IMG/VR virus record: IMGVR_UViG_3300030029_000205
Direction: 5' to 3' (one strand)
DNA length: 64,000 nt
DNA from: a virus
Taxonomy: Duplodnaviria; Heunggongvirae; Uroviricota; Caudoviricetes
The notes under the pieces were generated by a model that had not been told where the DNA came from, did not search any database, and saw only the letters and a list, made by a program, of their open reading frames with translations. Positions 14,101-51,005 of the stretch are shown here, in pieces. Within the stretch, counting starts at the first letter, position 1. Each line of letters begins with the position of its first letter. Position numbers and translations under genes: made by a program.

Positions 14101-15583
14101 TGTATTAGGGTATCAAGACGATGGTAGCGGAAGACCTTTATGGTTACAGTTTGTAACTGATATGCGACCTGAATGGATGCTCTCTGTTAGAGATATAGCT
14201 TGTATGTGTGGTGGTTTGACTTCTGACGCTAATATGACTAAAGGCAGAGATAATCCTATTACTAAAGAGTATTATGAATATATAGATTATGTTAATAAGC
14301 ATAAAGAGCTTAACATAGATGATACTACTATGTCAAGTGAAGGAGCCTATTTTGAAGATGAGAATGGTGAAAGACAGTATGATATAAGTGGGTATGAGAG
14401 TGATGCTCGCAGAGATTTCTATGCTACTGATGATGGTAGCGATGAGGAGTTTGAAGAAGAGTCTTTTCAAGATAGAATGGCTCATAGTCTTGGTGATGAT
14501 GAGACTATAGATGACTTTGAGGAAATTGATTTGTTTGATGATTCAGATAATTTCGATGAACCAGGAGCTGAAAATATTGGAGCTTTCGATGATTTTGAGG
14601 ATGCTAATGCTGTTGGTGACACATATGGTAATCCTGTTTTAGATGAGAAAGATGCTTTAATAGCAACTCTCATTGATAGATTACAGCAGAATGGTATAGA
14701 TGTATCGGATTTGGATGGGTATTCAATACCAGAGACAGGTAAAGGTGTAGATTGTGGGTATGATTGCCCTGATTATAAAGAAGAATTCTCAAGTCAAGAT
14801 ATAGGAAATATGGATTTCAGTAGTGAGGATGATGAAATAACTGCTACAACATATGCTAATCTTGTAAAACTGGTAACCAATAAGGTAATTGGTAATTTCG
14901 GTGGTTATGATAGAATAAACACCTTTAGGGTAATTGGTGGAGCTATTGCGATTAACGGTACTATTTTTAGAAGTAAGGTAAGTAAAGACTGTTTAGGTTT
15001 ACTTCCTCTTGATATAAGAAGACAGATTTCTGCAGGAAATCTGGCAGATCTGTTTAACTATAGAGAGTTGTTTAATATGCCGAATTTGAGGGGTTTAGAT
15101 TTTGATTCTGAGAGTTTTGTATATAATAGGGTATCGCCTTTACTTGGTTTTATTGATACAATTGGGGTAGATAACTATTTTGAGGCATTTAGTTCTTTAC
15201 AGATACTCAAAATTGGAAACAGGAAGTTTACAAGACAGAATTACAAAATGGAAATTGGTGATGAAGATATCTTCAGTTATCAGAGTAAAGCTACAAAATA
15301 TGCAAGGATGTGTGACAACAACTTGTCTAATCTTACTTCTAAATCTTGGAGTTTTACTAAAAATATGTTCAATAGTAAGAACCACGGCTTAGTAGCTAAA
15401 ACTTTTGGGGTAATATTTGGTACTACAGCATCGTTAGCAACAGGTGCAGCATCTTTAGGAGCTAAAGCTGCAAAGGGTATATCCCATCAGGTAGATAGAC
15501 ACAATCAGCGTAAAACCTTTACTGAGAAAGCTAAAGATGGTTTTTCTGCTTTTAAGGGTGGTTTTAAAGATTTGTTTAATTGA
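11189..15583 (+). CDS. giant 1464-aa protein with acidic low-complexity tracts and a possible deviant P-loop NTPase core
   Basis: RBS AAGGAG. Acidic tracts DEEEDMGEEEVYEDSDEPEVNDDEA, plus C-terminal DE-rich and Gly/Ala-rich tails. INAGSRSGKGVMT (GKG instead of GKS/T) and GIFLVCDETNVL (hhhhDE). Confidence 0.8.
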   Translation: MKEKVISLRVGKLAEGKKSLLPNVFSALCGNKAGKMKYVGIEGINLRGFEKKLLGADTDLYLDTLIDAISIVENMGIKDADCALCSNDSFKVAKLFGVHLATNLTSDEIISKWASEEMVDDFDVYKEGNDSDTDWDEVDEDYSDADDIYDDEEEDMGEEEVYEDSDEPEVNDDEAVLREEIKKVFNSTVISLVSKVKKRYDLLFESGYDLERPYCIISDKGSLFVDSDNVLKMRENPSKDIDFSAILNIYELFEGKIGFNLSDARSSKVIAQDLLEGYLNGGKLDYFPYKLLEYAYGRNPSREESTQYSYATYKGQGVSTNWGKFGDKVVEDIRLTVEDAITSYCLDVLKTGTERENIRSIIRDSQTIKNIQNYIEYVADSLSVCIIVTEYKSIDGKPVMLKMRVCDPRGKVTNGMTGEIINTAFSGNTGGSSGATLNSGLNESDSMTYRVFEFGHEFNHSLSNAMPLFAYKAFEKLREKGENVSFKDLILGQSTDGTILRNGTHGLVLDKKLFHYINAGSRSGKGVMTLNMIAGALLSGKAVIYLDNKPDMVSMLAKLCGGEEGGNYSGPPFFGINGSNNVDDKQKQFTHEDAWISRDNIPIEAVALFGEPTWSKYGEIFYMRAYTLAMGIILARGLDGGHGKMNDPAYGGKEGIFLVCDETNVLQEKFKVIGQIIADKIPLQAKKFKSMSASLESVYNEAYSENARKGAELKFFNAKRDFEEAFNAHKFYALAYLNTLSDNIAYIYDKSLAGFLQKEMECSDIVIIGQNLEQKPISKDTITSAVSSGRLSGEGSGANGLGGTQIAKDVKGMASIPFAHFVFSSSDALIGYNSLHPEYLAQTEQNSKAFGRLDLVANNFCYIPNFKVSASEDDVPGAQLTKNVANASTSVYFKPYLILNDASKAYTDQMFDRVRNAGLTPEDVVYEYPNADGSDISPYVGFPEYMSLMGVSDIPERLQKGANIANMVVRDVLGYQDDGSGRPLWLQFVTDMRPEWMLSVRDIACMCGGLTSDANMTKGRDNPITKEYYEYIDYVNKHKELNIDDTTMSSEGAYFEDENGERQYDISGYESDARRDFYATDDGSDEEFEEESFQDRMAHSLGDDETIDDFEEIDLFDDSDNFDEPGAENIGAFDDFEDANAVGDTYGNPVLDEKDALIATLIDRLQQNGIDVSDLDGYSIPETGKGVDCGYDCPDYKEEFSSQDIGNMDFSSEDDEITATTYANLVKLVTNKVIGNFGGYDRINTFRVIGGAIAINGTIFRSKVSKDCLGLLPLDIRRQISAGNLADLFNYRELFNMPNLRGLDFDSESFVYNRVSPLLGFIDTIGVDNYFEAFSSLQILKIGNRKFTRQNYKMEIGDEDIFSYQSKATKYARMCDNNLSNLTSKSWSFTKNMFNSKNHGLVAKTFGVIFGTTASLATGAASLGAKAAKGISHQVDRHNQRKTFTEKAKDGFSAFKGGFKDLFN

Positions 15584-26284: not shown

Positions 26285-26372
26285 GCTGGTATGGTGGAAT
26301 AGGCAGACACAAGGGACTTAAAATCCCTCGGTCATTGCGACCGTATCGGTTCAAGTCCGATTACCAGCACCA
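26285..26372 (+). tRNA. tRNA-Leu (anticodon TAA), type II with long variable arm, CCA encoded
   Basis: Acceptor GCTGGTA/TACCAGC. Anticodon stem AGGGA/TCCCT with loop CTTAAAA. Variable arm CGGTC...GACCG. T-arm TCGGTTCAAGTCCGA. Discriminator A plus CCA. Confidence 0.85.
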
Positions 26373-26517
26373 TGAGGTGGGTATTAGAGTTACCCATCTT
26401 TACATCCAAAGGTAGTCCTCCAACTACATAAAGCATTTAAATGGGTGTGTTAGGTTTTCATAAAAAAACTCTCCTAAAAGAAGTCCTTGCAATTAGTGAG
26501 TGTTGCAAGGACAACCT

Positions 26518-26591
26518 GTAGATGTAGTTTAATGGTAAAATGTCAGTTTCCCATACTGAGGTTGTGGGTTCGATTCCCATCATCTGCTCCA
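26518..26591 (+). tRNA. tRNA-Gly (anticodon CCC), CCA encoded
   Basis: Acceptor GTAGATG/CATCTGC (one G-U). D-arm GTTTAATGGTAAAAT. Anticodon stem TCAGT/ACTGA with loop TTCCCAT. T-arm GTGGGTTCGATTCCCAT. Discriminator T plus CCA. Confidence 0.6.
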
Positions 26592-26890
26592 CTGGTGATT
26601 CACCAGTTTATTATAAGAAAACCAGCTTATATGTTGCAGGTAAATTTCTTATAAAAACCTACAGAAAGCAAGTCCTTGAATAAAGGTTGAGTAGGGTAAG
26701 ATGCTTTAAAGTTATGCACCTTTAGCTTAAAGATAGCAACCGTGTAAAAACGGTAAAGACGGTAGGGTATCCATTATAGAAGGGGTTAATGGTACTCTTT
26801 ATGGTGCTAATTATTCGAGTAAAGTTTCTTCAGTAATCTTGCTCGAATACAAACTGAAGTGACCAACCCCTATATAGGGGTTGGGTATAT

Positions 26891-26958
26891 GGAGATGTAG
26901 TATAAGTAGTATCTTAGCTATGTTAAGGGTATGAGTGCAAGTCTCATCATCTTCACCA
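26891..26958 (+). tRNA. short tRNA-like element (good acceptor and T-arm, reduced D region; anticodon unresolved)
   Basis: Acceptor GGAGATG/CATCTTC. T-arm ATGAGTGCAAGTCTCAT. ACCA at the 3' end. Only 65 nt before CCA, so possibly a degenerate tRNA. Followed by a terminator at 26958-26981. Confidence 0.3.
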
Positions 26959-26981
26959 CCCATCCAGAATGGGTTATTTTT
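26958..26981 (+). terminator. small terminator hairpin (ACCCAT-ccaga-ATGGGT + TATTTTT) after tRNA-like 26891
   Basis: 6-bp stem plus T-tract. Confidence 0.45.
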
Positions 26982-27078
26982 AAAGAGTGCTTACTTTCGC
27001 TGTTTCTTTCTTTTTTGTACAAATTGATTACATAACATAACCGTTCAAATCTTTATAAAGTAAGCACTCAATTGAATA

Positions 27079-27152
27079 TGCAGAAAGTAGTTTAATGGTA
27101 GAATACCCGCCTAAGAGGAGGAAGATGCAGGTTCGACTCCTGTGTTCTGCAG
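27079..27152 (+). tRNA. tRNA-like gene, type and anticodon unresolved
   Basis: Acceptor TGCAGAA/TTCTGCA, 7 bp perfect. D-arm TAGTTTAATGGTAGAAT. T-arm GCAGGTTCGACTCCTGT. Anticodon stem pairs poorly in every register. Loop region contains CCTAAGAGG. Confidence 0.45.
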
Positions 27153-36993: not shown

Positions 36994-37027
36994 ATAAACA
37001 TAGAAATTGAAAGGAGAGATATTTATT

Positions 37028-37651
37028 ATGAAAGATATCTATTATCATTTTTACAAAAATTTTCTTATTGAGAGGTTTAAAACTAATGAAGAGAGGTATG
37101 ATTTTGTTAAGTCCTCTTTGTTAGGTACTGCTTTGGATGAATTTAGGTATGCTTGTAACTTCCTAACAATGTTTGATGAAGACACAAGTGAGGGTTTATT
37201 TCAGGAAGATACATACGGGGTAGCAGATTTAAAGAGAATAGCTAATGAGAGGGTAGAGGCTATTTTAGGACCTATAAACTTTGTATTCATCGGGGTAATT
37301 CTAAAGTACGGTTATCCAAATAGTTTTGAGAATATATACAAACTTTTCTCATTTAAATATACTGCGATAGATGAAGTTATTCCTGAAGATATTAAAAGAT
37401 TGGTTATTTGCTTATTTATTTCATTAGCTATTTACACTGATGCACAAGAAGGTGTAATTAAATCTACAGAAGACTATAAGAAAGCAATACTTGATTCAGA
37501 GGATATAATTTATGCCTTTTCTGAGAGAATAAAAAACTTGAGAAGTATGAATACTTTTCTTGAAAATTTTTGGAACAGGGATTATAATAAGGCTAATGAT
37601 TATGTTATGTTTATATTAAGCATTGTTCAGAGGTATCTGGAAACAGAGTAA
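37028..37651 (+). CDS. hypothetical protein (ACNFL-motif family, paralog of 37873-38463)
   Basis: ATG after AAAGGAGAG. Promoter TTGCAA-N17-TAAGAT at 36965-36993. Confidence 0.7.
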   Translation: MKDIYYHFYKNFLIERFKTNEERYDFVKSSLLGTALDEFRYACNFLTMFDEDTSEGLFQEDTYGVADLKRIANERVEAILGPINFVFIGVILKYGYPNSFENIYKLFSFKYTAIDEVIPEDIKRLVICLFISLAIYTDAQEGVIKSTEDYKKAILDSEDIIYAFSERIKNLRSMNTFLENFWNRDYNKANDYVMFILSIVQRYLETE

Positions 37652-37737
37652 ATTATGTGTTTTGATTATATTGTAAAACATTGCATTTTGTGTTAAAATA
37701 TAAACATATAATATAAGAGGTATAAGATACGAGCAAT

Positions 37738-37869
37738 AATTGGTTTTCTGATAAAATGTCAGAAGAAGTTCCATTTGAAGAAATTGAAGAGAAAGCTGAC
37801 AAAGGAGATTTTCAATGGAATTCATTAGATGTATGTATTTTAAGCAGTATAGTGAAATAAGGGGGTATT
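37738..37869 (+). pseudogene. duplicated 5' fragment of methyltransferase gene 38617 (about 80 nt, ~90% identical) forming a 37-codon remnant ORF
   Basis: AATTGGTTTTCTGATAAAATGTCAGAAGAAGTTCCATTTGAAGAAATT is shared with 38623-38670. The remnant reads MSEEVPFEEIEEKADKGDFQWNSLD... and then diverges. Confidence 0.6.
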
Positions 37870-37872
37870 TAT

Positions 37873-38463
37873 GTGTATAAGTGCAGTAATGTTGTAAAAA
37901 ACAAAAGTGAAGAAATGTTCTATAAATACTGTTATGAATTGCCTGATAATGCTGAAGATGTGTGTAAATCTGTAAGTAAAGCATTAAAAACAGGTGATTT
38001 TGAAGATTTTTCAATGGCTTGTAATTTCTTGGAAATGCTTGATTATAAGAGTAACGATATTCCGTATGAAAAGAAGAGTCTGTTAAAAAGAGAAGCAAAT
38101 GCAAGAGTTCGTGAAATTCTTGGTGTTGACTTATCAGGTTTGTATGACAGGATTGTGAAGGTTTCAAAGCAGGAATTGTATTGTGGAGATGAATTATATA
38201 AGTTGTTTGGTTATGAAGTAGTTCCTGATTATGTTCAGGATTGTATTGTAAGTACAATAGTTGTATATCATATGTTACAGGGAAGTGTTAATCTTGTAAA
38301 TGTATTTACTTTGGCAGATATGATATACCATCCTTTTGTATTTTGGGAAAATAAGGATGTTAAGTTTGTATGTTCAGTGTTTAGAAATATTGCTTATGCT
38401 CTTTATGAAAAAGATATTGATAAAGCATATGATATATACAAAGAAAACATTAAAAAGGAGTAA
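37873..38463 (+). CDS. hypothetical protein (ACNFL-motif family paralog)
   Basis: GTG 9 nt after AAGGGGG. Shares the FSMACNFLEMLD / ...ARVREILG block with 37028-37651. Confidence 0.65.
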   Translation: MYKCSNVVKNKSEEMFYKYCYELPDNAEDVCKSVSKALKTGDFEDFSMACNFLEMLDYKSNDIPYEKKSLLKREANARVREILGVDLSGLYDRIVKVSKQELYCGDELYKLFGYEVVPDYVQDCIVSTIVVYHMLQGSVNLVNVFTLADMIYHPFVFWENKDVKFVCSVFRNIAYALYEKDIDKAYDIYKENIKKE

Positions 38464-38616: not shown

Positions 38617-40608
38617 ATGGAAAATTGGTTTTCTGATAAAATGTCAGAAGAAGTTCCATTTGAAGAAATTCAAGAGAAAGCTGACAATGGTGATTTTCAT
38701 CAGTGGAACTTTGAACCTTTTGAATTTCAGGAGAATGGCTATGAAGATGTACTTGATGAGATTAAGAAGTACACTGCTGTAGATTATCTTAAGCTTGACG
38801 AGGAAAGAAAAAAAGCTGAAAGTAGTGGAAATTCCGAAAAGGCAAAAGAGTACAAGGCTAAGATGGATAAAATGGTAGACGATGTGCTTGCAATTTACAG
38901 ACAGAAGAACATCTTTCCCATTCAGTATTTTTCAGAATTCGGTATTTTTGATGAGATTGAAAAATGCGTGGCATACAAAGCCTTTTGGAATGGAAATGTA
39001 GTAAGTTGTGGAGCAGGAGTGGGTACTACTCTTTGTAACTATCTTTTTCCTAATTTGTTTGATACTCCATCTCAGCACGATTTGGATAAAACAAATGCTC
39101 GTTCTCTTTATGAGAAATTCAACAATGATGATTTTCTCCGTAGAGCTATAAAGTTCTGTTTTAGTTATAAGAATGGTTGTCCAGTACCTACATCAGTTAT
39201 GGGTGGTTTAAGATTGGTAGGTAGTGCACCTACAAACTTTCGACCTATGAATGCTAAGGCAGTGTTTGAAAGGTTTTGTCCAGAGGGCGGAGTGATTTAT
39301 GATTTCTGTTGTGTATCTGGGGATACTGAGTTCTTTTGTGGCGATGGTTGGAAACCTATTAGTGAATATATGAAAGGCGACAAGGTTTTGCAGTATAATG
39401 AAGACGGAACTGCTAAAATGGTAGAACCAGAGGAGTACATTCATTATAAGAATAACGAGCCTTTTTATGAATACGAAAATGAAGAGTTTGCATCTTGTCT
39501 GACGGGTAATCATGATGTGGTTTATACACGATATGATGGCATACATAAAATCAAGCAGAGTGAGATATTAGACGGCTTTGATGGCGGGATTCCCATCACT
39601 TGTGAGTTTGGTTCAAAAGGGAGTGTTTATAGCTATGAAGATATGATTAGTATGGTTACTCACTTTGTAGCTATGTCTGAGAAAGATTCATCTCTTTACA
39701 AACAGTTTTGTAATGCTCTTTATTCTATGTCTTATGACGACAAGTGTTTTTTTATTGAGAAAGTTTTTCAGGGTAAAAATATATGGTTTACTGTAAATAA
39801 AAAGGCAGCTGATATTGTAAATACTCTTTGCAGAATGGTAGGGTGTTATTCTGTTATGAATAATGACCGTATTGCTGATGATATTTATTATGTAGAAAGG
39901 GATACTACTGGTTATAAGAATACTTCAAAGTATGAAGTAAATGAAAAGTACAGCTTTAAAAAGGTAGAACAGGAAGATAAATATTGTTTTGTTGTACCCA
40001 GTCATATGCTTGTGCTACGCTATAAGGGTAAAGTATTTATAACTGGTAATTGCGGTTTTGGTGGAAGAATGCTTGGAGCTCTTTCTTCTAAGAAGAATTT
40101 TAAGTATGTAGGAACTGACCCTTGTACTGAGACAATGTATCATCTGCATCAGCTTGGTGACTATATTGAGATGGTCACTGGTAGAGATGATTCATATGAA
40201 CTTCATTGTTGCGGTAGTGAGGTCTTTAAAGGACCAGAGAATAGCATTGACTTTGCTTTTAGTTCCCCACCGTACTTCAACCTTGAGGTGTATTCTGATG
40301 AAGAAACCCAGTGCTATAATAAGTTCCCAGAGCTTAATCAGTGGTTAGAGGGATATGTAAGAGAGACGATTAAAAATATTAAGCATATGCTGAAGAAGGG
40401 CAGATGTTATGCAGTAAATATTGCAGACTTTAAAGTTGGTGGAGGTAGTGAAGTAGCTTATGTAGATGAGTGGATTCGCATATCAACAGAAGAGGGTATG
40501 CCTTTATTTGATACAGTATATCTTGGTGTAACTGCAAGAGCAGGTAGTAAAGAGCAGGCAGCTGGAGAACTTAAGAAAGAAAATATTCTTATCTTTAAGA
40601 AAGTGTAA
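38617..40608 (+). CDS. DNA amino-methyltransferase (motif I DFCCGFGG, motif IV SPPY) interrupted by an intein
   Basis: Extein: ...VIYDFC | CGFGGRMLGA...FSSPPYFNLEV. Inserted Hint domain CVSGDTEF...GDKVL (block A), LTGNHDVV (block B), YCFVVPSHMLVL...FITGN followed by +1 Cys. Confidence 0.8.
   Translation: MENWFSDKMSEEVPFEEIQEKADNGDFHQWNFEPFEFQENGYEDVLDEIKKYTAVDYLKLDEERKKAESSGNSEKAKEYKAKMDKMVDDVLAIYRQKNIFPIQYFSEFGIFDEIEKCVAYKAFWNGNVVSCGAGVGTTLCNYLFPNLFDTPSQHDLDKTNARSLYEKFNNDDFLRRAIKFCFSYKNGCPVPTSVMGGLRLVGSAPTNFRPMNAKAVFERFCPEGGVIYDFCCVSGDTEFFCGDGWKPISEYMKGDKVLQYNEDGTAKMVEPEEYIHYKNNEPFYEYENEEFASCLTGNHDVVYTRYDGIHKIKQSEILDGFDGGIPITCEFGSKGSVYSYEDMISMVTHFVAMSEKDSSLYKQFCNALYSMSYDDKCFFIEKVFQGKNIWFTVNKKAADIVNTLCRMVGCYSVMNNDRIADDIYYVERDTTGYKNTSKYEVNEKYSFKKVEQEDKYCFVVPSHMLVLRYKGKVFITGNCGFGGRMLGALSSKKNFKYVGTDPCTETMYHLHQLGDYIEMVTGRDDSYELHCCGSEVFKGPENSIDFAFSSPPYFNLEVYSDEETQCYNKFPELNQWLEGYVRETIKNIKHMLKKGRCYAVNIADFKVGGGSEVAYVDEWIRISTEEGMPLFDTVYLGVTARAGSKEQAAGELKKENILIFKKV
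39310..40050 (+). mobile_element. intein (247 aa) inserted within methyltransferase motif I (FxGxG loop)
   Basis: Begins Cys (CVSGDTEFFCGDGW) and ends ..KVFITGN followed by Cys+1. The central ~140 aa may be a degenerate homing-endonuclease or linker domain. Penultimate residue is Gly, not His. Confidence 0.6.
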
Positions 40609-41147: not shown

Positions 41148-41189
41148 ATTATAGAATGTTTTAATAACTGTATATAGGAGGTATTGTTT

Positions 41190-41900
41190 ATGGGTAATAC
41201 AGTAGTAAAAATTAGTAAGTATGATTACAATAACAAATACAAAGATGTACCAGAATTGAGCAGTTTAAACTCAAGAGAAGATGTGGCTACATTCTTAGAT
41301 ACTTTTGAAGAGTCAGGTTTAAAAGGGTACAATATTGAAAAGATACTGACAAAAAATTCAAAGTATATTTTTGTGTACAGTGATAAGATAACTGGTTGGG
41401 ACTTTTTCAAAGAGATTAATAAGTTATCTTCTATTGATATTGATATAACTCCTCAGAATATAAAAATTTTGTTTGATAAAACAAAATCGAGGGGATATTT
41501 CACTGAAGAAGATTATACTCCAGCTACTAATACGAGTGATATGTCTATGAGTGTAGACGAAGATGCTCCTACAGGTTTTATGGGGGACGATTCACCTATA
41601 TTGGATAGTGTTGATAGAAGATTACTCCATGTAAGAAGGGGTGTAAGACTACCTATAAATGACGCTCACGGTATTATCATAGGTAGAAGTACCTCTCAGT
41701 CGGAGTACACAGTGAATAATACAAAGGTTTCTCGTAAGCATGCACAAGTGTATAAAGAAGGTAATAAATGTATGGTACACGATTTTGATTCTGCTAATGG
41801 TACTTTTATTGATGGTTTAAGAGTTAGGTCTGATTTAGACAGAGAATTACTGGTAGGTAGTTCTTTAATGTTGGCAGACGAAGAGTTTAAACTTGTGTAA
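41190..41900 (+). CDS. FHA-domain protein
   Basis: ATG 8 nt after AGGAGG. C-terminus IIGRSTSQSEYTVNNTKVSRKHAQV....DFDSANGTFIDGLRV is a classic FHA (GR...SR.HA...D..S.NGT). Confidence 0.8.
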   Translation: MGNTVVKISKYDYNNKYKDVPELSSLNSREDVATFLDTFEESGLKGYNIEKILTKNSKYIFVYSDKITGWDFFKEINKLSSIDIDITPQNIKILFDKTKSRGYFTEEDYTPATNTSDMSMSVDEDAPTGFMGDDSPILDSVDRRLLHVRRGVRLPINDAHGIIIGRSTSQSEYTVNNTKVSRKHAQVYKEGNKCMVHDFDSANGTFIDGLRVRSDLDRELLVGSSLMLADEEFKLV

Positions 41901-41918
41901 TCAAGAGGTAGGTATCTT

Positions 41919-42608
41919 ATGAGAATAGATTCTTTATCTGATGTAGGTATAAAAAGAAAAGAGAACCAGGATAATTTCTGGTCATCAGTGCTTTTGGTAG
42001 ATGGCAAGGAAGCAGGGGTAATCTGTATTTGCGATGGTATGGGTGGTTTAGATAACGGTAAGTTGGCAAGTAAAATGGTGGTAGAAGGGGTAAGAGACTC
42101 AATACTTAGTAAATTTGATTTCAATGATTTATCTAATGTCTTAGCATCTGTTAATGATAGTATAAGGTCATTGTATGGTGGAGATAGGTCTAAGGCTATG
42201 GGTACAACCTGTACTGTATTGGTTTGCTATGATAATAAATACAAGATAATACATATAGGTGACTCACGAGCATATAAAATTTCTAATGGTACTTGTACTT
42301 TACTTACAGAAGACCATTCCGCTGTAAAGCAGTTCAATATATCTAAGAAAGATAATCCTGTTTTGTGGAACAAGTATAAAAGCAAGTTAACAAGGTGTAT
42401 TGGGGTAGAACCAAGTATTAAACCGTATATATCAGAGGGTACTTATAGTATTGGAGATATATTTGTACTTTGTTCCGATGGCTGTTGGCACTATTTTGAA
42501 GATTTCAATCTAAGTAAAGGTACTATAAATGATTTAAATTCTTTGGTTAGAAGTTGTATATCTAATGGTGAAACTGACAACATAACAGTTAGTGTTTTAT
42601 ACATTTAG
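41919..42608 (+). CDS. PP2C-family Ser/Thr protein phosphatase
   Basis: DVGIKRKENQDNF, ICDGMGG, VLCSDGCW motifs. Confidence 0.85.
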   Translation: MRIDSLSDVGIKRKENQDNFWSSVLLVDGKEAGVICICDGMGGLDNGKLASKMVVEGVRDSILSKFDFNDLSNVLASVNDSIRSLYGGDRSKAMGTTCTVLVCYDNKYKIIHIGDSRAYKISNGTCTLLTEDHSAVKQFNISKKDNPVLWNKYKSKLTRCIGVEPSIKPYISEGTYSIGDIFVLCSDGCWHYFEDFNLSKGTINDLNSLVRSCISNGETDNITVSVLYI

Positions 42609-42784
42609 GAATTTTTAAAATTTTTAAGATATGGTAAAAATAGGGAGTTATGAATTATTATTTATGTATTAAAATATTGTGAGATATGTATCTGATTTTT
42701 CGTTAATATTTGCCTATTTTTTGTGGTTGAGTTTCTGTTGAGCTTTAATTTCGTAAATAGCGTAATGAAAGGAGTTGGAATCTG

Positions 42785-44458
42785 ATGGCAAATAGAAGGG
42801 AACATTTGAACAATGGTGACCTTGTATTAAACGGTAGGTATGAAATACTTAAATGTATTCATTCTAAAGGAATGGCTAATGTTTATCTTGTAAGAGATAC
42901 TCAATTAGGTAAACAATGGTGCTTAAAAGAGATTAGGTTATCTCAAGCAGGTAGGGAAAATATTGAGTATATAAGTCTTATGCAAGAGGCAAACATACTG
43001 CGTTCCTTAAATAATGAGAAGATACCAAGAATTACTACCATTGATAATGATGGTGACTCTTTGTTTGTGGTAATGGATTTCTTAGACGGTGTTACTCTAA
43101 AGGATTTTGTACAGGAGAAAGGCAGAATACCTGAAGAGCTGGCTGTTAAATGGATGATTCAGATAGTACAAGCCGTTGGGTATTTGCATAGTGAGAGGTC
43201 AAATAAGAAGCCTATCTTTTACAGGGATATGAAACCAGATAACTTAATGATTAGGTCAAATGGTGTAATAAATATATTCGATTTCGGTATTAGTGTTAGG
43301 ATAGAGAATCCTAATCAATTACCAGAATACACTCTGGGTACTCCAGGTTATGTTGCTCCAGAGCAGAAAAAGAAAAATTTACCTATGGATTTAAGGTCAG
43401 ATATCTATTCAATGGGAAGAACTTTTTATTTTATGTTGACAGGGGTAGACCCAAGGGGTTTCATAGGGGAGAAGTTAAAACCGATTAGTGATTGGAGTCC
43501 AGATGTTTCGCCAGTATTGATATCTATTGTCAATAAATGTATGGAAGAGAATCCTAACGATAGATATCAGAATTGTGAAGAGTTACAGTATGCTTTAGAG
43601 AATTACAAGTATTCTGATGAAAAACATCGTTCTTCCGCAAAGAGGAAGGTTAAGGTAGTAATTGGATTAGCCGTAGCAGGCATTACAATGGGTATCTTCA
43701 GTATAATTCCTTTTGGTATAAACGGAGCTCAGTCTAAAGATGCTTACAATAAAGCTTTAGTAGTTGCTCAGCAAAGTGGTAGATTAGAAGATTATGATAA
43801 GGTGCTTTCTATGAATCCACTAAGCATACCACCATATGAAGGGTATATAGATGCTATTAAGGAAGATGGTGTTTTTTCTTTAGATGAAGAAAAAGGTCTA
43901 TTAAATCATATAAATCCTAATTTAATAGACTTAAAAAATGATAAGGATTATGGTAAAATTGCTTTTGATATAGGTAAGCTATATTGGTTTTACTATCCAT
44001 CTGAAGATGGAAAAACCTTGTCTATAAAATGGTTTGATGATGCAATAAGCAGTGGTTTTAATAAGGAAGAGTCAACCGCTTATTACAAGTTAGGAGTGTT
44101 TAATAGAGATATTTCTAAATCTGTTAAAGAAGCAAGTGATAGCGGTATGTACAAGGATTATTGGGACAATCTGTTATCTATACAGAATATGGATACAAGT
44201 GATATAATTACTTTACAGACAAATATTTCTATTGCTGAGTGTATTTCAACATATGCATATAACTTAAAGAAAGATGGGGTATCTTATGAAGATATTTCAA
44301 AAGAATTGAAGTTATTAAATGGTTTTGTTAGCAGTTATAAGGTAGATAGTTCTACTTTAGATACTATTAAGTCCTTGTATGCTGAATTAAAATCTGATTT
44401 GGAGGGGTTAAGTGATAGGGTTGATGTGATTTATGGTAAAAGTGGAGGTGGTAATTGA
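42785..44458 (+). CDS. Hanks-type Ser/Thr protein kinase with transmembrane segment and extracytoplasmic C-terminal domain
   Basis: YEILKCIHSKGMANVY (G-loop), WCLKEI (Lys), YRDMKPDNLMI (catalytic loop), DFGIS, GTPGYVAPE. TM VVIGLAVAGITMGIFSIIPF, then ~270-aa domain. Confidence 0.85.
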   Translation: MANRREHLNNGDLVLNGRYEILKCIHSKGMANVYLVRDTQLGKQWCLKEIRLSQAGRENIEYISLMQEANILRSLNNEKIPRITTIDNDGDSLFVVMDFLDGVTLKDFVQEKGRIPEELAVKWMIQIVQAVGYLHSERSNKKPIFYRDMKPDNLMIRSNGVINIFDFGISVRIENPNQLPEYTLGTPGYVAPEQKKKNLPMDLRSDIYSMGRTFYFMLTGVDPRGFIGEKLKPISDWSPDVSPVLISIVNKCMEENPNDRYQNCEELQYALENYKYSDEKHRSSAKRKVKVVIGLAVAGITMGIFSIIPFGINGAQSKDAYNKALVVAQQSGRLEDYDKVLSMNPLSIPPYEGYIDAIKEDGVFSLDEEKGLLNHINPNLIDLKNDKDYGKIAFDIGKLYWFYYPSEDGKTLSIKWFDDAISSGFNKEESTAYYKLGVFNRDISKSVKEASDSGMYKDYWDNLLSIQNMDTSDIITLQTNISIAECISTYAYNLKKDGVSYEDISKELKLLNGFVSSYKVDSSTLDTIKSLYAELKSDLEGLSDRVDVIYGKSGGGN

Positions 44459-44870: not shown

Positions 44871-47800
44871 ATGGTGAATTTAAATTCAACAAAATGTAAG
44901 TTAATAGCATTTTTGTTAGCTGTTATGACTGTAATATCTATGTGCACTAATGCCATAGCAGTATGGGGTAACGATAGCAAATATGGTATTAAGGTACTTG
45001 ACGAGTCTGTAATAGGCAGAATCGATGAAGAAATCGATACTGGTTATATTATAAATGGTAAGACTCTTCAGTTAGATTGTAGTGATTGTGATTGGGAAAA
45101 TATCTCAAAAATTGAAGTTATCAATGAGAAAAATCACAAGAGCAAGTTAACTGAAAAAGGTATCTTAGATGTGCCTAAAGAAAATGGTACATATACTGTT
45201 GTAATTACATACAAAGATGGTGTAAGTACAAAAGATGAAGCAGTAAAAACTAAAAGCACTGCAGATGAGGCTGTAAAAGAGGTTTCTTTCCCGTTAAAGG
45301 ATATTACTTCTTTCTCAACAGTAAAATATGACAAATATGGTACAAAAATCTACTCGGTGTATATAGGTAGAAACCTGATGTCAGAGGGTAGTTGGTTAAC
45401 GGATAAAGTTGCCACAATTTCAATAAATACAAATTTACCTAAAGATGAAATGGTAAAAACTAAAGTGTTGTTAAATGGTAATGAGGCAATTACAGAATTA
45501 AAAGATAAGAAAATTTATGTACAAAGAAAAAATGTATCTTTGCAGAGAGAAAATAAATTAGAGGTTTACATTACTAATTTATATGGTACAGAGTTCAGTT
45601 ACACTTTGAATTTTAAATTTGATAATACAAATGTAAAAGTATCTGATGCTGAGATAAGTGGTAAGACAGCATATCTTGAAGATACTTTACTTGCTGAAAA
45701 AGGTGCTACTGTTAATGTACCAGTAGATTCTGGTGATTTATCAATTTCTTCTGTAGAAGTGTTAAAAGAAGACGAATTGTACGCTAATAGTAATACCTTT
45801 AAATTAAATGATGAGGGGTATTATTCAATAAGGGTAACTAAGGAGTCAGGAAAAGTATCAGTCTTTAACCTTTTTGATGGTAAAAAGGTTGTTTTTGATA
45901 CTGAGAGTCCTAAGTTAGTATCTTCAAAGTATAATGATGCTGATTTTGATACTGATTCTTGGTATAATAAGGAAGGTGTTCTGTCATTTATTGCAAAAGA
46001 TAATATAGCTTTATCAAAAAACTATACTTTAGTAGTAAATGGCAAGGATTATACTTGTGATATCAAAGAACTTGAAGATGATACTTACAGCTATAATATA
46101 GATACAACTTTATGGGATAAAAATGAAGAAGGTATTTATAAAATTGCTCTTACAGCGGAAGATTTAATGGGTAATGAGTTAAATATTTCTACTGTACTGA
46201 AACTTGATACTATTAAACCGAGTTATCATGGGGTTACTGTTGAGAGTGACAGTCAAATTGATAATGTATATTACTTTAAAGATGAAATTACCTTAAAAGG
46301 TCAATTCTCGGACAAAGGCTCAGGGGTAAAAACAGTAAGCTATAAAGATACTGATGATGAAGATTTTAAAGAAATCTCATTACCGTTCAAGACAAAAGGT
46401 CAGGGTACTTTCAAGGTAGAAGATGTTGCAGGTAATATATCTACTTATACTACTGGAGAATTATTAACTCTGTTGGGGGTATCACCCTATGTGGTAGATG
46501 ATGACAATCCTGTAATTGTCAGAAACAGTTTAGATGTACCTTATACAAAAGATGGTGAAGATTATCTTTCAAAAAAGCCAATCTTAACATACAAAGTTAC
46601 TGATAGTAATATGAAATCAGTAGATTTTTACATTAATGGTGTATTACAGGATAGTACATATAATGTAAATGATTTATATCAGTTTAGTACAAACGGTATT
46701 TCTGATGGAAAAAATACCGTAAAGGTAGTTGCTACCGATAAAGCAAACCATGTTTCAGAAGATGTGTACTCTTTTGTTTTAGATAAATCAGCTCCTAAAA
46801 ACATACAGGTGAAGGCTGATAAACCTACAAATGAAAAACAGGGTAATGTTTATTATCAGGAAGATTTAAATGTAAATATTTCTGCGGAAGATAAAACATC
46901 AGGCATTAAATATTATAGTCTTAATGGTAATAACACAGACAAAGGTAATTTTACTATTACTGAAGATGGTTCTTACAAGTTTAATGTATATGATAATTTA
47001 GGTAATAATATAGGTAATACTCCATTATCTGATTACACAGGTTGGGATGGCAATAACATTGTTATTGATAGAAATAATCCTGTTATTGAGGCAAAAAGAC
47101 CTGAGGGTAGTAAGGATGATTGGTTTGATAAGAATGTAGTATATAATGTGTCAATATCAGATGACAAAGGTATTAATTCAGCATATATTACTATTAACGG
47201 AATCAAGGTAGCTACTTTTGAAACAGATAAAACTGATGTAAAGACAGCAACTTTATCTGCTGATACCTCTTTAGTAAAGCCAAACTATGATGGTAGTTAT
47301 GATATTAAGGTCTATACAGAAGATAATAGTAAACGAAATGCATCTTGGTCAGATAAGGTATATATTGATACCGACGCTCCTACTGATATAGTTGTTGATT
47401 GCGAAACCCCATCTAATGAAAAAGGTGGTAATGTTTATTTTAAAAACAGTTTTTACATTCAGGTTTCTGCAAGTGATGATTATGCAGGTATTAGTAAATA
47501 CTATTTAAATGATACAGAAGTCAATGATTCTGGTAGATTTCTTATTGAGGCTAATGGTTCATATACTGTAAGTGTAGAAGACAAAATGGGTAATAAATCA
47601 AAACCCATAACCTTACAAGAGTTGCTTGGTTGGCAGGGGAATAACATTGTTATAGACGGCAATAAACCTGTATTTGATGCAAGCAGACCTAACGGGGAAG
47701 ATACCGAAAACAAGAATTGGTATAAGAAAGATGTAGTATATTCTGTAAAAATTACAGATGATGAGGGTATTAACTTTGCTTATATGAAAGTTAATGGTTT

Positions 47801-50800
47801 AACAGTTTCAGAGTTTACCACTGATGATACTAATGTAAAATCTAATACCTTATCTTTAGATACCTCTAAGGTAGCACCAGATAGTAAAGGTGCTTATGCT
47901 ATTGATGTATACACAGAAGATAATTGTAAAAACGAAAACAGCTGGTCAGATACTATATATGTAGATTACAAGCCCCCTTATAACTTATCTGCTACATCCA
48001 CCACACCAAAGAAAGAAAAGGGTGGAAATGTTTATTTTAACGAGGATGTTGCTTTATCTGTAAAGGCTGTAGACGATTATGTTGGTTTAAAGGGTTTTAA
48101 ACTTAATGGAAAAGAATCAACAACGGGTAAATATACTTTAACTACTGATGGGGAATACTCAATTACTGCTTATGATAAATTATATAATGAGTCAGGTAAG
48201 TATTCTTTACAGTCTTTATTAGGTTGGAGTGGAAATAATGTAGTCATTGATGATAGTAAACCTGTAATTTCAGCTCCAAGACCCTCAGGTGAGAGTTCTA
48301 TAAAGAAAAATTGGTATGGCAAAGATGTAGTTTATAATATCTCAGTATCCGACAACAAGGGTATAGATAATGCTTATGTTACTATCAATGGCGAAAAGGT
48401 TGATAGTTATTATACAGCTGAAACTAATGTTAAAAATATCAGTTTAAAGGCAGATACTTCTAAGGTTGGTGCTAACTCAGATGGTAGTTACAATATTAAA
48501 GTGTATGCTGAAGATAACGGTACTTTAAGTGCTGTATTTGAAGATACAATTTATATAGACACTACTAATCCTGTAGTTGCGAATTTTGGTATATTTGGAG
48601 ATATAAGTAGAACAGGAAAGACTGTCAATGGCGGTGGAAACTATGGTTTTTACTTTGATGGTAAAGGCTCTGTTCAGGTACAGGTAAAAGATGAGGGTAT
48701 CTCATCAGGTATTTACTCTATTTGGACAAAGTTAAATGGTCAAGATTGGGTAGAGCATAAGACAAATGGTGATACCGTTTGTTATGTTGATGTACCTGCT
48801 AATTATAAAGGTTTTGTTGAAGCTTATGTAGTTGATAATGTAGGTCATAAGAGTGGTGTAAATAAACCAGATGGTTTAGTATCAGAGACATCAACCGCCC
48901 ATAAGGGTAGTTCTAAGGTAGCAATTACCTTACCTAAGGAAGTAAGTTTCGATGAAAACAATGTGCCATTGTATAGTGGTAGTCTTACGACAGATGTATA
49001 TGTATCTTGTGATTGGTCTGGTTTAAAGAAGTTAGACTGGGGTATCAACAATACTACATATGGTACAATTACAGACTTCAGTAATGCATCTTCGTGGGAT
49101 AAAAACTTACCTTTAAGCTTTAATAGTAAGTTTAATTTAGATGGTAATGAAAGTTCTATGAAGTTTTGGGTAAGAATAACTGATAGAACTAACCATACTA
49201 CTGAGAATGATAGATTATTTAGTATAGACAAGGTAAAGCCTGTTATCTCAGTATCTTATAATACCACAGAGAGTAATAGTTATTACAATAAAGATAGAGT
49301 TGCAAACATTACGGTAACTGAGAGAAATTTTGATTCTTCTAAATTTGAAGTATCAGGAACAGCAGGAGTTCTTGGTAGTTGGTCAAGAAATGGAGATACT
49401 TGGTCAAATACTATGACATTTAGTGGTAATACTGATTACAAGTACACTTTGAGATGTACTGATAGAGCTAATAATGTTTCAGATGCTTATACAAGTGAGT
49501 CATTTACAGTAGATAAGGTAAATCCAACATTGTCTGTATCTTGGGATAATAACAGTGTTTTAAATGGTAATTATTACAAGTCTGCAAGAACTGCAACATT
49601 AACAGTAGTAGAGCATAATTTTGATGCATCTTTAATTAATGTTGCTAATGCTACTGTAAGTGGTTGGAGTAATAATGGTGATGTGCATACTGCTAATATT
49701 ACTTTCAATTCTGATGGGGAGTATGACTTTACTGTAAGTGGTAAAGATAAAGCAGGTAATAGCTTTGATTCTAATTATAAAAGTGGTACTTTTATAATTG
49801 ATACGGTAAAGCCTAATATAGAGATACTTGGTGTATCAAATGGTGTGTCTTATAAGAAGGATGTATCCATTAGGGTATCTTTAAGTGATAAGTATTTAAA
49901 TAGTGATAACATTTCTGTAAGATTGTACGGTAAGAACCATAAAGAAAAGTATTTAATCGGTGTAAGTGCAGGAAATACTATTACTTATTCATATGATGCT
50001 TTTCCAAAGGATAAGGATACTGACGATGTATATACATTGGAGGTAGTTGGAAGCGACCTTGCAGGAAACATCATGAAAGAGGAAAGGGTATTCTCTGTAA
50101 ATAGATTTGGTTCGGAATACAAATTTATAGAGGAAGGGTATCTCGGTAATTACTTAAATACTTCTAAAGATATTTCAATCTCAGAGTTAAATGTAGATAA
50201 GATTGATACATCTAAGGTTAAGTTTGTTGTAACTTTAAATGGTAAAAATATTGATATAGATTCCAAATATATTACTATTTCCGAAGAAGAGAAAGATGGT
50301 AGGTATTTATATACTTATACAATTAGTAAAGATGCCTTTACTGAGGACGGTAAATATGTTATTCAGGTATATTCAGAGTCTGATGATGGTACAGAATATA
50401 CAAGTGTAGCGGAAGAATATAATTTTGTAATAGATACTCAAAAACCAGTAATTCTTGTATCAGGTGTAGAAAGTAATAACATTTATCAGGATTATAATAG
50501 AAAAGTAACTGTGGATGTAAGAGACTTTTCTGGTGTAAAGAGTATTTCAGTAATTCTTAACGGTAAAGCTATTGAGTACACTGTTGAAGGTGATATGTAT
50601 GTATTTACAATACCTGAGAGTACTGATAGACAAAGTTTGGTAGTAAAAGTTACAGACCTTGCAGGAAATTCTAACGAAATAAAGGTGGATAATTTCCTTA
50701 TTTCTTCAAATACTTGGGTATATCTGATTAATCAGATTTGGTTTAAGGTATTAATAGTGTTAGTTGCTCTTGCAATTATAGGTTTGATAGTATTACTTAT

Positions 50801-51005
50801 TGTAAGAAAGCGTAAAGATATTAAAAATGAAGAGATGCTTGCTAAAGAGAATGAAAAGTATTACAAGAGTTCAGGTGCAAGTTCTTCAGGCAATTCTTTA
50901 GGTGATAAGGATGAAACAGAGTTAATGTCAAATGCTGATACCAATAAGGGTACTGATGTTGTAAACAATGATGATAATGATTCCAATACAGATATGCTTG
51001 AATAA
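44871..51005 (+). CDS. 2044-aa surface protein: signal peptide, many Ig-like/adhesin-type repeat modules, C-terminal TM anchor and acidic cytoplasmic tail
   Basis: RBS TTAGGAGG. Signal peptide MVNLNSTKCKLIAFLLAVMTVISMCTNAIA. Repeated ~290-aa modules (…DTDAPTDIVVD..PSNEKGGNVYF..., IDxNKPVIxAxRP...). TM VLIVLVALAIIGLIVLLIV followed by RKRKD and a D/N-rich tail. Confidence 0.85.
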   Translation: MVNLNSTKCKLIAFLLAVMTVISMCTNAIAVWGNDSKYGIKVLDESVIGRIDEEIDTGYIINGKTLQLDCSDCDWENISKIEVINEKNHKSKLTEKGILDVPKENGTYTVVITYKDGVSTKDEAVKTKSTADEAVKEVSFPLKDITSFSTVKYDKYGTKIYSVYIGRNLMSEGSWLTDKVATISINTNLPKDEMVKTKVLLNGNEAITELKDKKIYVQRKNVSLQRENKLEVYITNLYGTEFSYTLNFKFDNTNVKVSDAEISGKTAYLEDTLLAEKGATVNVPVDSGDLSISSVEVLKEDELYANSNTFKLNDEGYYSIRVTKESGKVSVFNLFDGKKVVFDTESPKLVSSKYNDADFDTDSWYNKEGVLSFIAKDNIALSKNYTLVVNGKDYTCDIKELEDDTYSYNIDTTLWDKNEEGIYKIALTAEDLMGNELNISTVLKLDTIKPSYHGVTVESDSQIDNVYYFKDEITLKGQFSDKGSGVKTVSYKDTDDEDFKEISLPFKTKGQGTFKVEDVAGNISTYTTGELLTLLGVSPYVVDDDNPVIVRNSLDVPYTKDGEDYLSKKPILTYKVTDSNMKSVDFYINGVLQDSTYNVNDLYQFSTNGISDGKNTVKVVATDKANHVSEDVYSFVLDKSAPKNIQVKADKPTNEKQGNVYYQEDLNVNISAEDKTSGIKYYSLNGNNTDKGNFTITEDGSYKFNVYDNLGNNIGNTPLSDYTGWDGNNIVIDRNNPVIEAKRPEGSKDDWFDKNVVYNVSISDDKGINSAYITINGIKVATFETDKTDVKTATLSADTSLVKPNYDGSYDIKVYTEDNSKRNASWSDKVYIDTDAPTDIVVDCETPSNEKGGNVYFKNSFYIQVSASDDYAGISKYYLNDTEVNDSGRFLIEANGSYTVSVEDKMGNKSKPITLQELLGWQGNNIVIDGNKPVFDASRPNGEDTENKNWYKKDVVYSVKITDDEGINFAYMKVNGLTVSEFTTDDTNVKSNTLSLDTSKVAPDSKGAYAIDVYTEDNCKNENSWSDTIYVDYKPPYNLSATSTTPKKEKGGNVYFNEDVALSVKAVDDYVGLKGFKLNGKESTTGKYTLTTDGEYSITAYDKLYNESGKYSLQSLLGWSGNNVVIDDSKPVISAPRPSGESSIKKNWYGKDVVYNISVSDNKGIDNAYVTINGEKVDSYYTAETNVKNISLKADTSKVGANSDGSYNIKVYAEDNGTLSAVFEDTIYIDTTNPVVANFGIFGDISRTGKTVNGGGNYGFYFDGKGSVQVQVKDEGISSGIYSIWTKLNGQDWVEHKTNGDTVCYVDVPANYKGFVEAYVVDNVGHKSGVNKPDGLVSETSTAHKGSSKVAITLPKEVSFDENNVPLYSGSLTTDVYVSCDWSGLKKLDWGINNTTYGTITDFSNASSWDKNLPLSFNSKFNLDGNESSMKFWVRITDRTNHTTENDRLFSIDKVKPVISVSYNTTESNSYYNKDRVANITVTERNFDSSKFEVSGTAGVLGSWSRNGDTWSNTMTFSGNTDYKYTLRCTDRANNVSDAYTSESFTVDKVNPTLSVSWDNNSVLNGNYYKSARTATLTVVEHNFDASLINVANATVSGWSNNGDVHTANITFNSDGEYDFTVSGKDKAGNSFDSNYKSGTFIIDTVKPNIEILGVSNGVSYKKDVSIRVSLSDKYLNSDNISVRLYGKNHKEKYLIGVSAGNTITYSYDAFPKDKDTDDVYTLEVVGSDLAGNIMKEERVFSVNRFGSEYKFIEEGYLGNYLNTSKDISISELNVDKIDTSKVKFVVTLNGKNIDIDSKYITISEEEKDGRYLYTYTISKDAFTEDGKYVIQVYSESDDGTEYTSVAEEYNFVIDTQKPVILVSGVESNNIYQDYNRKVTVDVRDFSGVKSISVILNGKAIEYTVEGDMYVFTIPESTDRQSLVVKVTDLAGNSNEIKVDNFLISSNTWVYLINQIWFKVLIVLVALAIIGLIVLLIVRKRKDIKNEEMLAKENEKYYKSSGASSSGNSLGDKDETELMSNADTNKGTDVVNNDDNDSNTDMLE

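Follow-up and report, generated by a model that had tools for sequence, protein, structure and literature searches.

The locus at positions 38617-40608 of the 64-kb stretch of DNA analysed here (64,000 nucleotides, from here on the window; IMG/VR viral record IMGVR_UViG_3300030029_000205) raises the question whether a phage methyltransferase gene has been invaded by an intein within the very loop that binds S-adenosylmethionine (SAM), and if so, what kind of intein it carries. Given the evidence described below, we consider it around 90% probable that the gene holds a class-1-type intein in the SAM-binding motif I loop of a phage amino-methyltransferase, probably an N4-cytosine or N6-adenine DNA methylase. 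The open reading frame (ORF), the split between ...VIYDFC and CGFGG, the CVSGDTEF and LTGNHDVV motifs and the Cys at position +1, all pointed out in an initial annotation of the sequence, were recovered in place, and the gene can be laid out as follows (here and below a vertical bar within a motif marks a junction).

38617..40608, plus strand: precursor gene, encoding a 663-aa methyltransferase including the intein (76.3 kDa); stop codon TAA at 40606-40608
38617..39309, plus strand: N-extein, aa 1-231, with the helical N-terminal domain and beta1 of the methyltransferase fold; ends in ...PEGGVIYDFC
39310..40050, plus strand: intein (247 aa, 741 nt, 28.7 kDa), in frame, with a predicted Hint fold
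39310..39333, plus strand: block A, CVSGDTEF, with Cys1 (39310-39312) as N-terminal nucleophile
39502..39513, plus strand: block B, T-x-x-H (TGNH within LTGNHDVV; intein T65...H68), assigned from motif and position and not from alignment to known inteins
39607..39978, plus strand: hypervariable central region, apparently a shortened and degenerate remnant of a LAGLIDADG homing endonuclease
39979..40050, plus strand: blocks F/G, KYCFVVPSHMLVLRYKGKVFITGN, with the conserved Cys226 and His232 and a terminal Thr-Gly-Asn, in which Gly is penultimate and Asn247 cyclises
40051..40605, plus strand: C-extein, aa 479-663, opening with Cys+1 (40051-40053) of CGFGGRM, with YVGTD (motif II region) downstream
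40264..40275, plus strand: motif IV, SPPY, in the context DFAFSSPPYFNL; amino-methyltransferase motif
Empty-site DNA at the intein position: ...GATTTCTGT|TGCGGTTTTGGTGG...

The predicted spliced methyltransferase has a length of 416 aa and a mass of 47.6 kDa. Within 39310-40050 the ORF list of the window contains no alternative-frame ORF of at least 40 aa on the plus strand, and a foreign composition of the intein was not seen (GC content 0.34, versus 0.36-0.39 in the exteins). No further copy of the intein lineage was found within the window.

The boundaries of the insert follow from comparison with homologs, for which the intein position of the window was named site B and a second, upstream position site A. 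Exactly site B is occupied by an insert of 237-410 aa in 118 of the 120 top database homologs, and without exception these inserts have Cys as first residue, Thr-Gly-Asn as last residues and Cys-Gly-Phe-Gly-Gly directly behind them. The homologs P0115 and P0118 are uninterrupted at this position and read ...VIYDYC|CGFGG. When all inserts are removed in silico, the 120 homologs go from 562-1059 aa to 397-440 aa. A database search with the in-silico spliced protein recovered P0241, an insert-free member of the same close clade as the window, whose 416 aa equal the predicted spliced length and which shows 89% identity over 100% of the spliced query. The P0241 locus (L011, on a contig of 185,106 bp) is fully syntenic with the window, the order being genes for proteins of 650, 527 and 208 aa, the methyltransferase gene, a gene for a 152-aa protein, and the genes for an FHA protein, a PP2C protein and a kinase. 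A MAFFT alignment of the window gene and the P0241 gene contains a single gap, of exactly 741 nt. Relatives from cultured phages (Bacteroides phages SJC03 and DAC16-23 and Vibrio phage 2.058.O) run contiguously across the junction, which reads DFS|CGFGS or DMS|GGFGG, and the same holds for a large insert-free sister family of 360-430 aa. The 741-nt stretch is a true insertion with exact boundaries, and the insertion point is fixed by P0115/P0118, by P0241 and by 32 insert-free cluster representatives of the close clade. The initial annotation had allowed for the case that the region would align as an ordinary contiguous methyltransferase domain; instead, intein-free relatives run straight across the junction, and the syntenic one lacks exactly 741 nt.

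With respect to the nature of the insert, an AlphaFold2 model based on an alignment of 23 diverse inserts reached a mean predicted local distance difference test score (pLDDT) of 93.4 and a predicted template modelling score (pTM) of 0.89. The top 50 PDB matches of this model in Foldseek are all inteins, bacterial intein-like (BIL) domains or Hedgehog autoprocessing domains, with TliVMA (E 1.4e-7), PhoVMA, AceL NrdHF, PI-SceI and the Ssp DnaB mini-intein in the lead. The pattern of conservation is that of two kept ends (~95 aa at the N-terminus, ~25 aa at the C-terminus) around a hypervariable centre of ~120 aa, as is typical of inteins; between close relatives the identity in the splicing blocks is 0.71-0.83, versus 0.30 in the centre. 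All members of a set of 159 unique inserts have Cys1, a penultimate Gly and a terminal Asn; TxxH is present in 156, the Thr of Thr-Gly-Asn in 99%, the block-F Cys in ~100% and the His that follows it in 146. The Cys at +1 is present and conserved as well. The reading of the insert as an intein, as put forward in the initial annotation, is supported by the precise presence/absence polymorphism, by the predicted Hint fold with its uniformly intein-type PDB matches (BIL and Hedgehog domains included), and by these near-invariant catalytic residues.

Several results weigh against this assignment. The scan for Hint or intein domains that the initial annotation had proposed gave none, as no intein or Hint model of Pfam or NCBIfam matched the insert at E <= 1. 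Neither phmmer nor a profile of 23 insert sequences found a match among PDB sequences, and an hhalign comparison with the Ssp DnaB mini-intein (1MI8) returned a probability of 0.4%. The sole lead at the sequence level was a PHROG of over-long, intein-bearing 'PhoH-like' proteins. Hint homology, the lack of which would have spoken against the initial reading, is thus indeed missing at the level of sequence and becomes visible in the predicted fold; considering the lack of sequence homology to curated inteins, the assignment rests on predicted structure, motif positions and population genetics. Finally, the canonical penultimate His (G:6), which commonly assists splicing without being obligatory, is absent and replaced by Gly.

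The class-1 layout proposed by the initial annotation was borne out, and only its treatment of the penultimate Gly as an anomaly has to be revised. The intein in the recombination directionality factor (RDF) of mycobacteriophage Bethlehem, which likewise has a penultimate Gly, splices to completion, and changing that Gly to His slows its splicing (PMC5050341). Kelley et al. suggested that a block-F His is able to substitute for the penultimate His (PMC5050341), and inteins without the latter have been reviewed (PMC4031507). By analogy, the penultimate Gly would represent a known, splicing-proficient phage variant and no defect. The signature of class 3 inteins was not found, as Cys1 is present and a Val instead of a Trp is located two positions after the block-B His (LTGNHDVV). 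Considering the presence of Cys1 and the lack of a Trp at B:12, the element is of class-1 type and not of class 3; a conserved block-F Cys, whose position F:4 is putative, and a Thr at G:5 are present. BIL domains are characterised by the lack of a +1 nucleophile, and here Cys+1 is conserved. Insertions of the ShiLan type have a hidden out-of-frame HNH ORF and no splicing domain, and here there is no alternative ORF and the predicted fold is that of a Hint domain.

The protein in which the intein resides was modelled in its spliced form, with 47 insert-free relatives in the alignment (pLDDT 90.3, pTM 0.90). The model predicts a helical N-terminal domain followed by a Rossmann-type domain, in which beta1 comprises residues 226-229 (VIYD), the next helix residues 236-242, beta2 (KYVGT) runs up to an Asp, and beta4 is followed by SPPY. 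Since the splice junction 231|232 lies between beta1 and the next helix, it is predicted to fall within the glycine-rich SAM loop (motif I). The split of motif I that the initial annotation had noticed thus reappears in the modelled class I SAM-dependent methyltransferase fold. The Cys at +1 is native to the SAM loop, as (S/A/C)|CGFGG is found in the insert-free family too. A PDB fold search with the spliced host yielded 623 SAM-dependent methyltransferases at E <= 1e-3, including Trm11 of the DPPY type. In a viral structure library the best matches to the entire two-domain architecture bear the annotation cytosine-N4 DNA methyltransferase or modification methylase, and the relative in Vibrio phage 2.058.O is annotated as an N-4 cytosine-specific DNA methylase. 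The spliced sequence aligns contiguously to phrog_12517 with 59 bits, versus 46 bits for the unspliced sequence, and the host matches a DNA methyltransferase PHROG at 1e-10. SPPY is invariant throughout the methyltransferase family. On the basis of the model, the host is well supported as a class I SAM-dependent amino-methyltransferase.

At the level of sequence, support for the methyltransferase assignment is weak, though consistent. The spliced window protein scores 18 bits against Pfam N6_N4_Mtase (PF01555), below the gathering threshold of 26.7; the relative from the Vibrio phage scores 26.9 bits, marginally above it, and the match is precomputed for many relatives. The best PDB sequence match of the host, aligned on SPPY, is the 'putative modification methylase' 2zie at an E-value of 0.098. 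With respect to the substrate, Trm11-type m2G RNA methyltransferases fit equally well as fold matches. 'Amino-methyltransferase' in the initial annotation therefore stands, and the word 'DNA' that preceded it draws on the annotation of relatives and on a motif, with Pfam below threshold. The same annotation and the SPPY motif suggest that the substrate would be DNA and the activity of the N4-cytosine type.

The insertion with its exact boundaries, the empty alleles, the two predicted folds, the conservation of residues and the mosaic structure of the gene are results of the present analysis; that the intein splices, that the unspliced precursor lacks activity and that the methyltransferase acts on DNA is our inference. 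Translation would give a 76.3-kDa precursor in which the SAM loop is split by a Hint domain of 28.7 kDa. Cys1 would undergo an N-S acyl shift, after which the N-extein would be transesterified to Cys+1, and Asn247 would cyclise, aided by the block-F His in place of the penultimate His. The expected products are a methyltransferase of 47.6 kDa with an intact ...YDFC-CGFGG... loop and an intein of 28.7 kDa. The methyltransferase presumably shields the phage DNA from host restriction, as has been argued for orphan phage methylases (PMC9957025). At the DNA level the element would be, or would formerly have been, mobile, as this site also has longer alleles with a LAGLIDADG-like endonuclease.

These longer alleles give an indication of what the central region used to be. 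The 334-aa site B alleles P0048 and P0054 contain LAIALQADG/VFHWDG motifs and a sub-threshold match to Pfam LAGLIDADG_3 (E 0.004-0.01), and P0048 is 93% identical to the window intein over the first 60 residues. The window intein lacks the acidic 'ADG'/'WDG' motifs and is ~87 aa shorter than P0048 in the central region; LAGLIDADG inteins have two such motifs and a centre of ~200 aa, and the window centre measures ~120 aa. The window intein looks like an element late in the homing cycle, in which splicing has been kept and the endonuclease lost. As most of the endonuclease domain is gone, it would persist only through splicing.

The exteins are mosaic. The N-extein shows 95-100% nucleotide identity to the P0241 allele until ~100 nt before the insertion point, after which the identity to L011 is only 67-80% over most of the C-extein, to rise again towards the 3' end (tract 39210-40500). 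Compared to the window, the intein-bearing P0002/P0008 share 98% of the residues in the C-extein and 71% in the N-extein. Judged from the sequences, this mosaic is the pattern that intein gain with co-conversion of the flanking extein would produce. Ordinary recombination could also explain the divergent tract, since the genome downstream shows reduced identity in general (85-95%), and this detracts from co-conversion as the explanation.

The methyltransferase family turned out to possess a second intein site, which is empty in the window:

39006|39007, plus strand: site A, empty second intein site NVVS|CGAGVGTT, ~100 residues upstream of site B

When filled, site A has the context ...G(N/D)xVS|C...TGN|CG(A/S)G(V/I)GT and contains a homologous intein. 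In a survey of 188 cluster representatives, 172 of which could be scored, site A was filled in 77, and all four occupancy states were encountered: A-B+ (63), A+B+ (54), A-B- (32) and A+B- (23). The intein is dispensable, as many alleles of this clade have no insert. The CG(A/S)G context of site A is confined to the invaded clade, the insert-free sister family reading LD|KRPTLGN at that position. For 146 of 151 inteins the nearest neighbour resides at the same site, and the site lineages are not monophyletic; as some pairs reach 87% identity in the splicing domain, exchange between sites A and B has occurred. The DNA similarity between the flanks of the two sites is at chance level (20/60) beyond a GT|TGYGG core, and therefore does not point to a long homing site common to both. 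Three length outliers had hinted at a third insertion site, which was discarded, as they represented site A before CGSG plus one parsing artefact. In the locus of P0118, which is A+B-, a free-standing HNH endonuclease gene (L005 3245-4423) is located three genes 3' of the methyltransferase gene.

An exhaustive search with the insert alone recovered 859 clusters (50% identity) at E <= 1e-3, with a median intein length of 321 aa. In 143 complete junction pairs, Cys was the first residue in 142 and TGN the end in 131. Position +1 was C, S or T in 142 of these junctions (C 83, S 46, T 13), position +2 Gly in 129 and position -1 Gly in 112. The site was a Walker A loop (GxxG|[C/S/T]GK[S/T]) in 109 of the 143 junctions and |CGxG in 12, the latter including further proteins that resemble methyltransferases (LDSS|CGWGN, IWEPA|CGTGE). 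Hosts identified via Pfam were RecD-like helicases, Toprim/DnaB primase-helicases, a NadR-like protein and ribonucleotide reductase (RNR), and some of the helicase and RNR members of the lineage contain a LAGLIDADG domain above threshold. Distant members from cultured phages (26-40% identity) reside in primase/helicase, RecD-like, PhoH-like and RNA-ligase genes; methyltransferases are not among their hosts, and in no case has the intein been annotated. The primase-helicases P0322, P0323, P0340, P0358 and P0366 contain two inteins of the lineage, which interrupt the Walker A loop and the Toprim motif (...EGE|C...GN|CD...), respectively. Seven methyltransferase-like proteins of putative identity (P0369, P0376, P0379, P0399, P0411, P0310 and P0343) contain an intein of the lineage at the apparent motif I, in the contexts '(I/V)WEP(A/C)|CGxG' and 'LD(Y/S)S|CGW...'; a Pfam domain was absent from the methyltransferase-like hosts P0310, P0343, P0376 and P0399. 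It is a tentative and rather doubtful proposal that the inteins of the form C...Thr-Gly-Asn|[C/S/T]-Gly make up a large unannotated lineage, missed by the Pfam/NCBIfam intein models and by PDB sequence searches, that homes to glycine-rich nucleotide-binding loops (beta-strand/loop/helix) whatever the fold, and that has spread from the Walker A loops of P-loop NTPases to the SAM loop of Rossmann methyltransferases (in at least two methyltransferase-like families) and from there to a second |CGxG site. If true, this would be an example from nature of ectopic intein transposition steered by a short stretch of structure or sequence.

Three other explanations of the insert have to be weighed. That it never splices and stays in the protein for good, as an inactive relic of an intein or as a looped-out accessory domain, would agree with the documented in-frame non-intein insertions in phage methylases (PMC11855218), with the failure of curated intein hidden Markov models (HMMs) to recognise it, and with the missing penultimate His and the degraded endonuclease region. 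A relic, however, would lose Cys1, TxxH, the F-block Cys/His, the Asn and the +1 residue, and the catalytic residues are near-invariant in the 159 inserts and in the 143 junctions in other hosts, so that a relic is disfavoured. The insert moreover splits the SAM loop itself and, in other hosts, the Walker A loop; because the lineage sits in the Walker A loops of essential helicases and primase-helicases, and also in RNR, an inactive insert is excluded there. Considering in addition the predicted Hint fold, the lack of an alternative-frame ORF of at least 40 aa on the plus strand and the complete splicing of the penultimate-Gly phage intein (PMC5050341), we regard a retained domain as very improbable. 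Even less credence can be given to a Hint domain that cleaves without ligation in a BIL- or Hedgehog-like manner, leaving two methyltransferase fragments. BIL and Hedgehog domains do occur among the structural matches and the penultimate His is lacking, but the conservation of the +1 nucleophile (Cys/Ser/Thr in 142 of 143 lineage junctions, Cys in the window) makes cleavage only unlikely; a single Rossmann fold spans both exteins, so that beta1 and the glycine loop would be parted without ligation, and insert-free alleles encode a contiguous protein.

The third explanation grants that the intein splices and holds that it serves as a conditional switch, for instance redox-tuned via Cys-1, Cys1, Cys+1 and the block-F Cys, that times the appearance of active methyltransferase. 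Four cysteines indeed converge on the active site (...DFC|C...KYCF...N|C), the penultimate residue tunes the splicing rate in phage inteins (PMC5050341), conditional and redox-sensitive inteins are documented (PMC6195587), and the intein persists although its endonuclease is degraded. Against this stand the common insert-free alleles in the same clade, the presence of Cys at -1 in empty alleles too, and the fact that occupancy, mosaic and LAGLIDADG alleles fit a selfish homing cycle without any benefit; a switch is therefore unlikely, though somewhat less far-fetched than the former two. A class-1-type splicing intein that entered the SAM loop as a mobile element remains the best explanation.

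Inteins in phage DNA methylases as such have been published before: 11 were described in the mycobacteriophage methylases DNMT-1/2 (N6_N4_Mtase; PMC5050341) and 21 in the actinophage methylase family of the Dorothy_75 type, which contains several insertion elements at distinct sites (PMC9957025). The statement in the initial annotation that such an insertion is uncommon is fair, and has to be read with these cases in mind. The window intein resembles the actinophage methylase inteins in its patchy presence, its conserved site, the signs of horizontal transfer and of recombination within the gene and the occurrence of more than one site per family. It differs from them in that its host is an uncultivated low-GC element of ~185 kb and a different methylase family (motif I before SPPY), and in that the actinophage inteins were found via PSI-BLAST/HHpred homology, whereas the window intein is invisible to sequence methods. 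With the Bethlehem gp51 RDF intein it shares the phage class 1 type, Cys1, the terminal Asn and the penultimate Gly; that intein has another host protein and an active endonuclease, which is toxic on cloning. Like the P-loop inteins of helicases, terminases, PhoH and RecA/RadA (PMC4760082, PMC5050341), the lineage resides mostly in Walker A. The methyltransferase site is structurally analogous to a P-loop (beta-strand/Gly-loop/helix), but binds SAM instead of ATP and belongs to a Rossmann fold, and within P-loops the lineage uses a position before x4 of GxxxxGK[ST] instead of the 'classic' GK|T site of Kelley et al. The VMA inteins TliVMA (7qsu), PhoVMA (7qst), whose endonuclease domain is inactive, and PI-SceI (1vde) similarly combine a Hint domain with an inserted domain (query-normalised template modelling scores of 0.59-0.65); they share only 8-13% identity with the window intein, the central domain of which is far smaller (~120 aa) and lacks the LAGLIDADG catalytic motifs. 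Mycobacterium smegmatis DnaB (PMC6195587) is comparable in that it, too, has two sites, each with an intein, and in that relatives vary independently in the occupancy of these sites. It differs in that the two inteins of the methyltransferase family are homologous (up to 87% splicing-domain identity) and both sites read |CGxG; the window has one of them.

Penultimate-Gly phage inteins, P-loop inteins, degenerate endonuclease domains and the occurrence of two inteins in one protein are thus already known. What is apparently new is the host family, the position in the SAM loop and the membership in a large lineage that is missed by standard models. A full-text literature search for inteins inserted at the SAM-binding site of a methyltransferase found no paper.

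The initial annotation had further reported an 80-nt duplicate of the gene's 5' end upstream of the gene. The duplicate is real, although it measures 77 nt, and forms part of a larger rearrangement:

37738..37814, plus strand: duplicate of the gene's 5' end (77 nt), 96% identical to 38623-38699; left edge of the inserted segment
37815..38577, plus strand: segment of ~0.8 kb absent from L011, carrying a 196-aa ORF (37873-38463)

The duplicate has no in-frame start upstream and is a non-functional remnant. The 196-aa ORF and the 214-aa ORF that precedes it (37007-37651) are distantly related paralogs (28% identity, E 4e-8), and the end of this 214-aa neighbour (~37300-37814) is unusually divergent from L011 (77-81%). 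The claim that the locus has been recombinationally active is supported, the 77-nt duplicate marking a rearrangement separate from the intein.

Directly downstream of the methyltransferase gene (41184-44458) lies a row of three phospho-signalling genes, for a protein with an FHA domain, a phosphatase of the PP2C type and a Ser/Thr protein kinase, and this trio is kept in L011. All 27 ORFs of at least 250 aa in the window are on the plus strand, the GC skew is +0.17 to +0.49 in every 1-kb bin and the GC content ~26-37%. Three tRNA genes (Leu-TAA, Gly-CCC, Leu-AAG) are located at 26285-27152, and helicases and a RecJ-like nuclease are encoded as well. Two giant ORFs at 11189-15583 (1464 aa) and 44871-51005 (2044 aa) have no PHROG match, and the only Pfam match in the two is a single Ig-like Big_13 domain in the 2044-aa ORF. 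Relatives are located on IMG/VR viral contigs. Cultured phages gave no megablast match to 20 kb of the window, and the window helicase is at most 26% identical to those of cultured phages. The genome is an uncultivated phage-like element of ~185 kb for which no close cultured relative was found.

None of these findings overturns current understanding. For the family they offer a simple reason why its members are listed as 'hypothetical proteins' of 650-1050 aa without a Pfam domain, namely that one or two unrecognised inteins split a methyltransferase of 416 aa. An HMM derived from the lineage would reveal hundreds of hidden inteins in gut and environmental phages and restore the annotation of their host genes. 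The splicing domains, with their invariant Thr-Gly-Asn end and Cys/Ser/Thr-Gly at +1/+2, might serve as tools, and the two-site, four-state polymorphism suits the study of the homing cycle. With the present case the SAM-binding loop joins the nucleotide-binding loops that are targeted by inteins, and in the phage the level of active anti-restriction methylase would depend on splicing.

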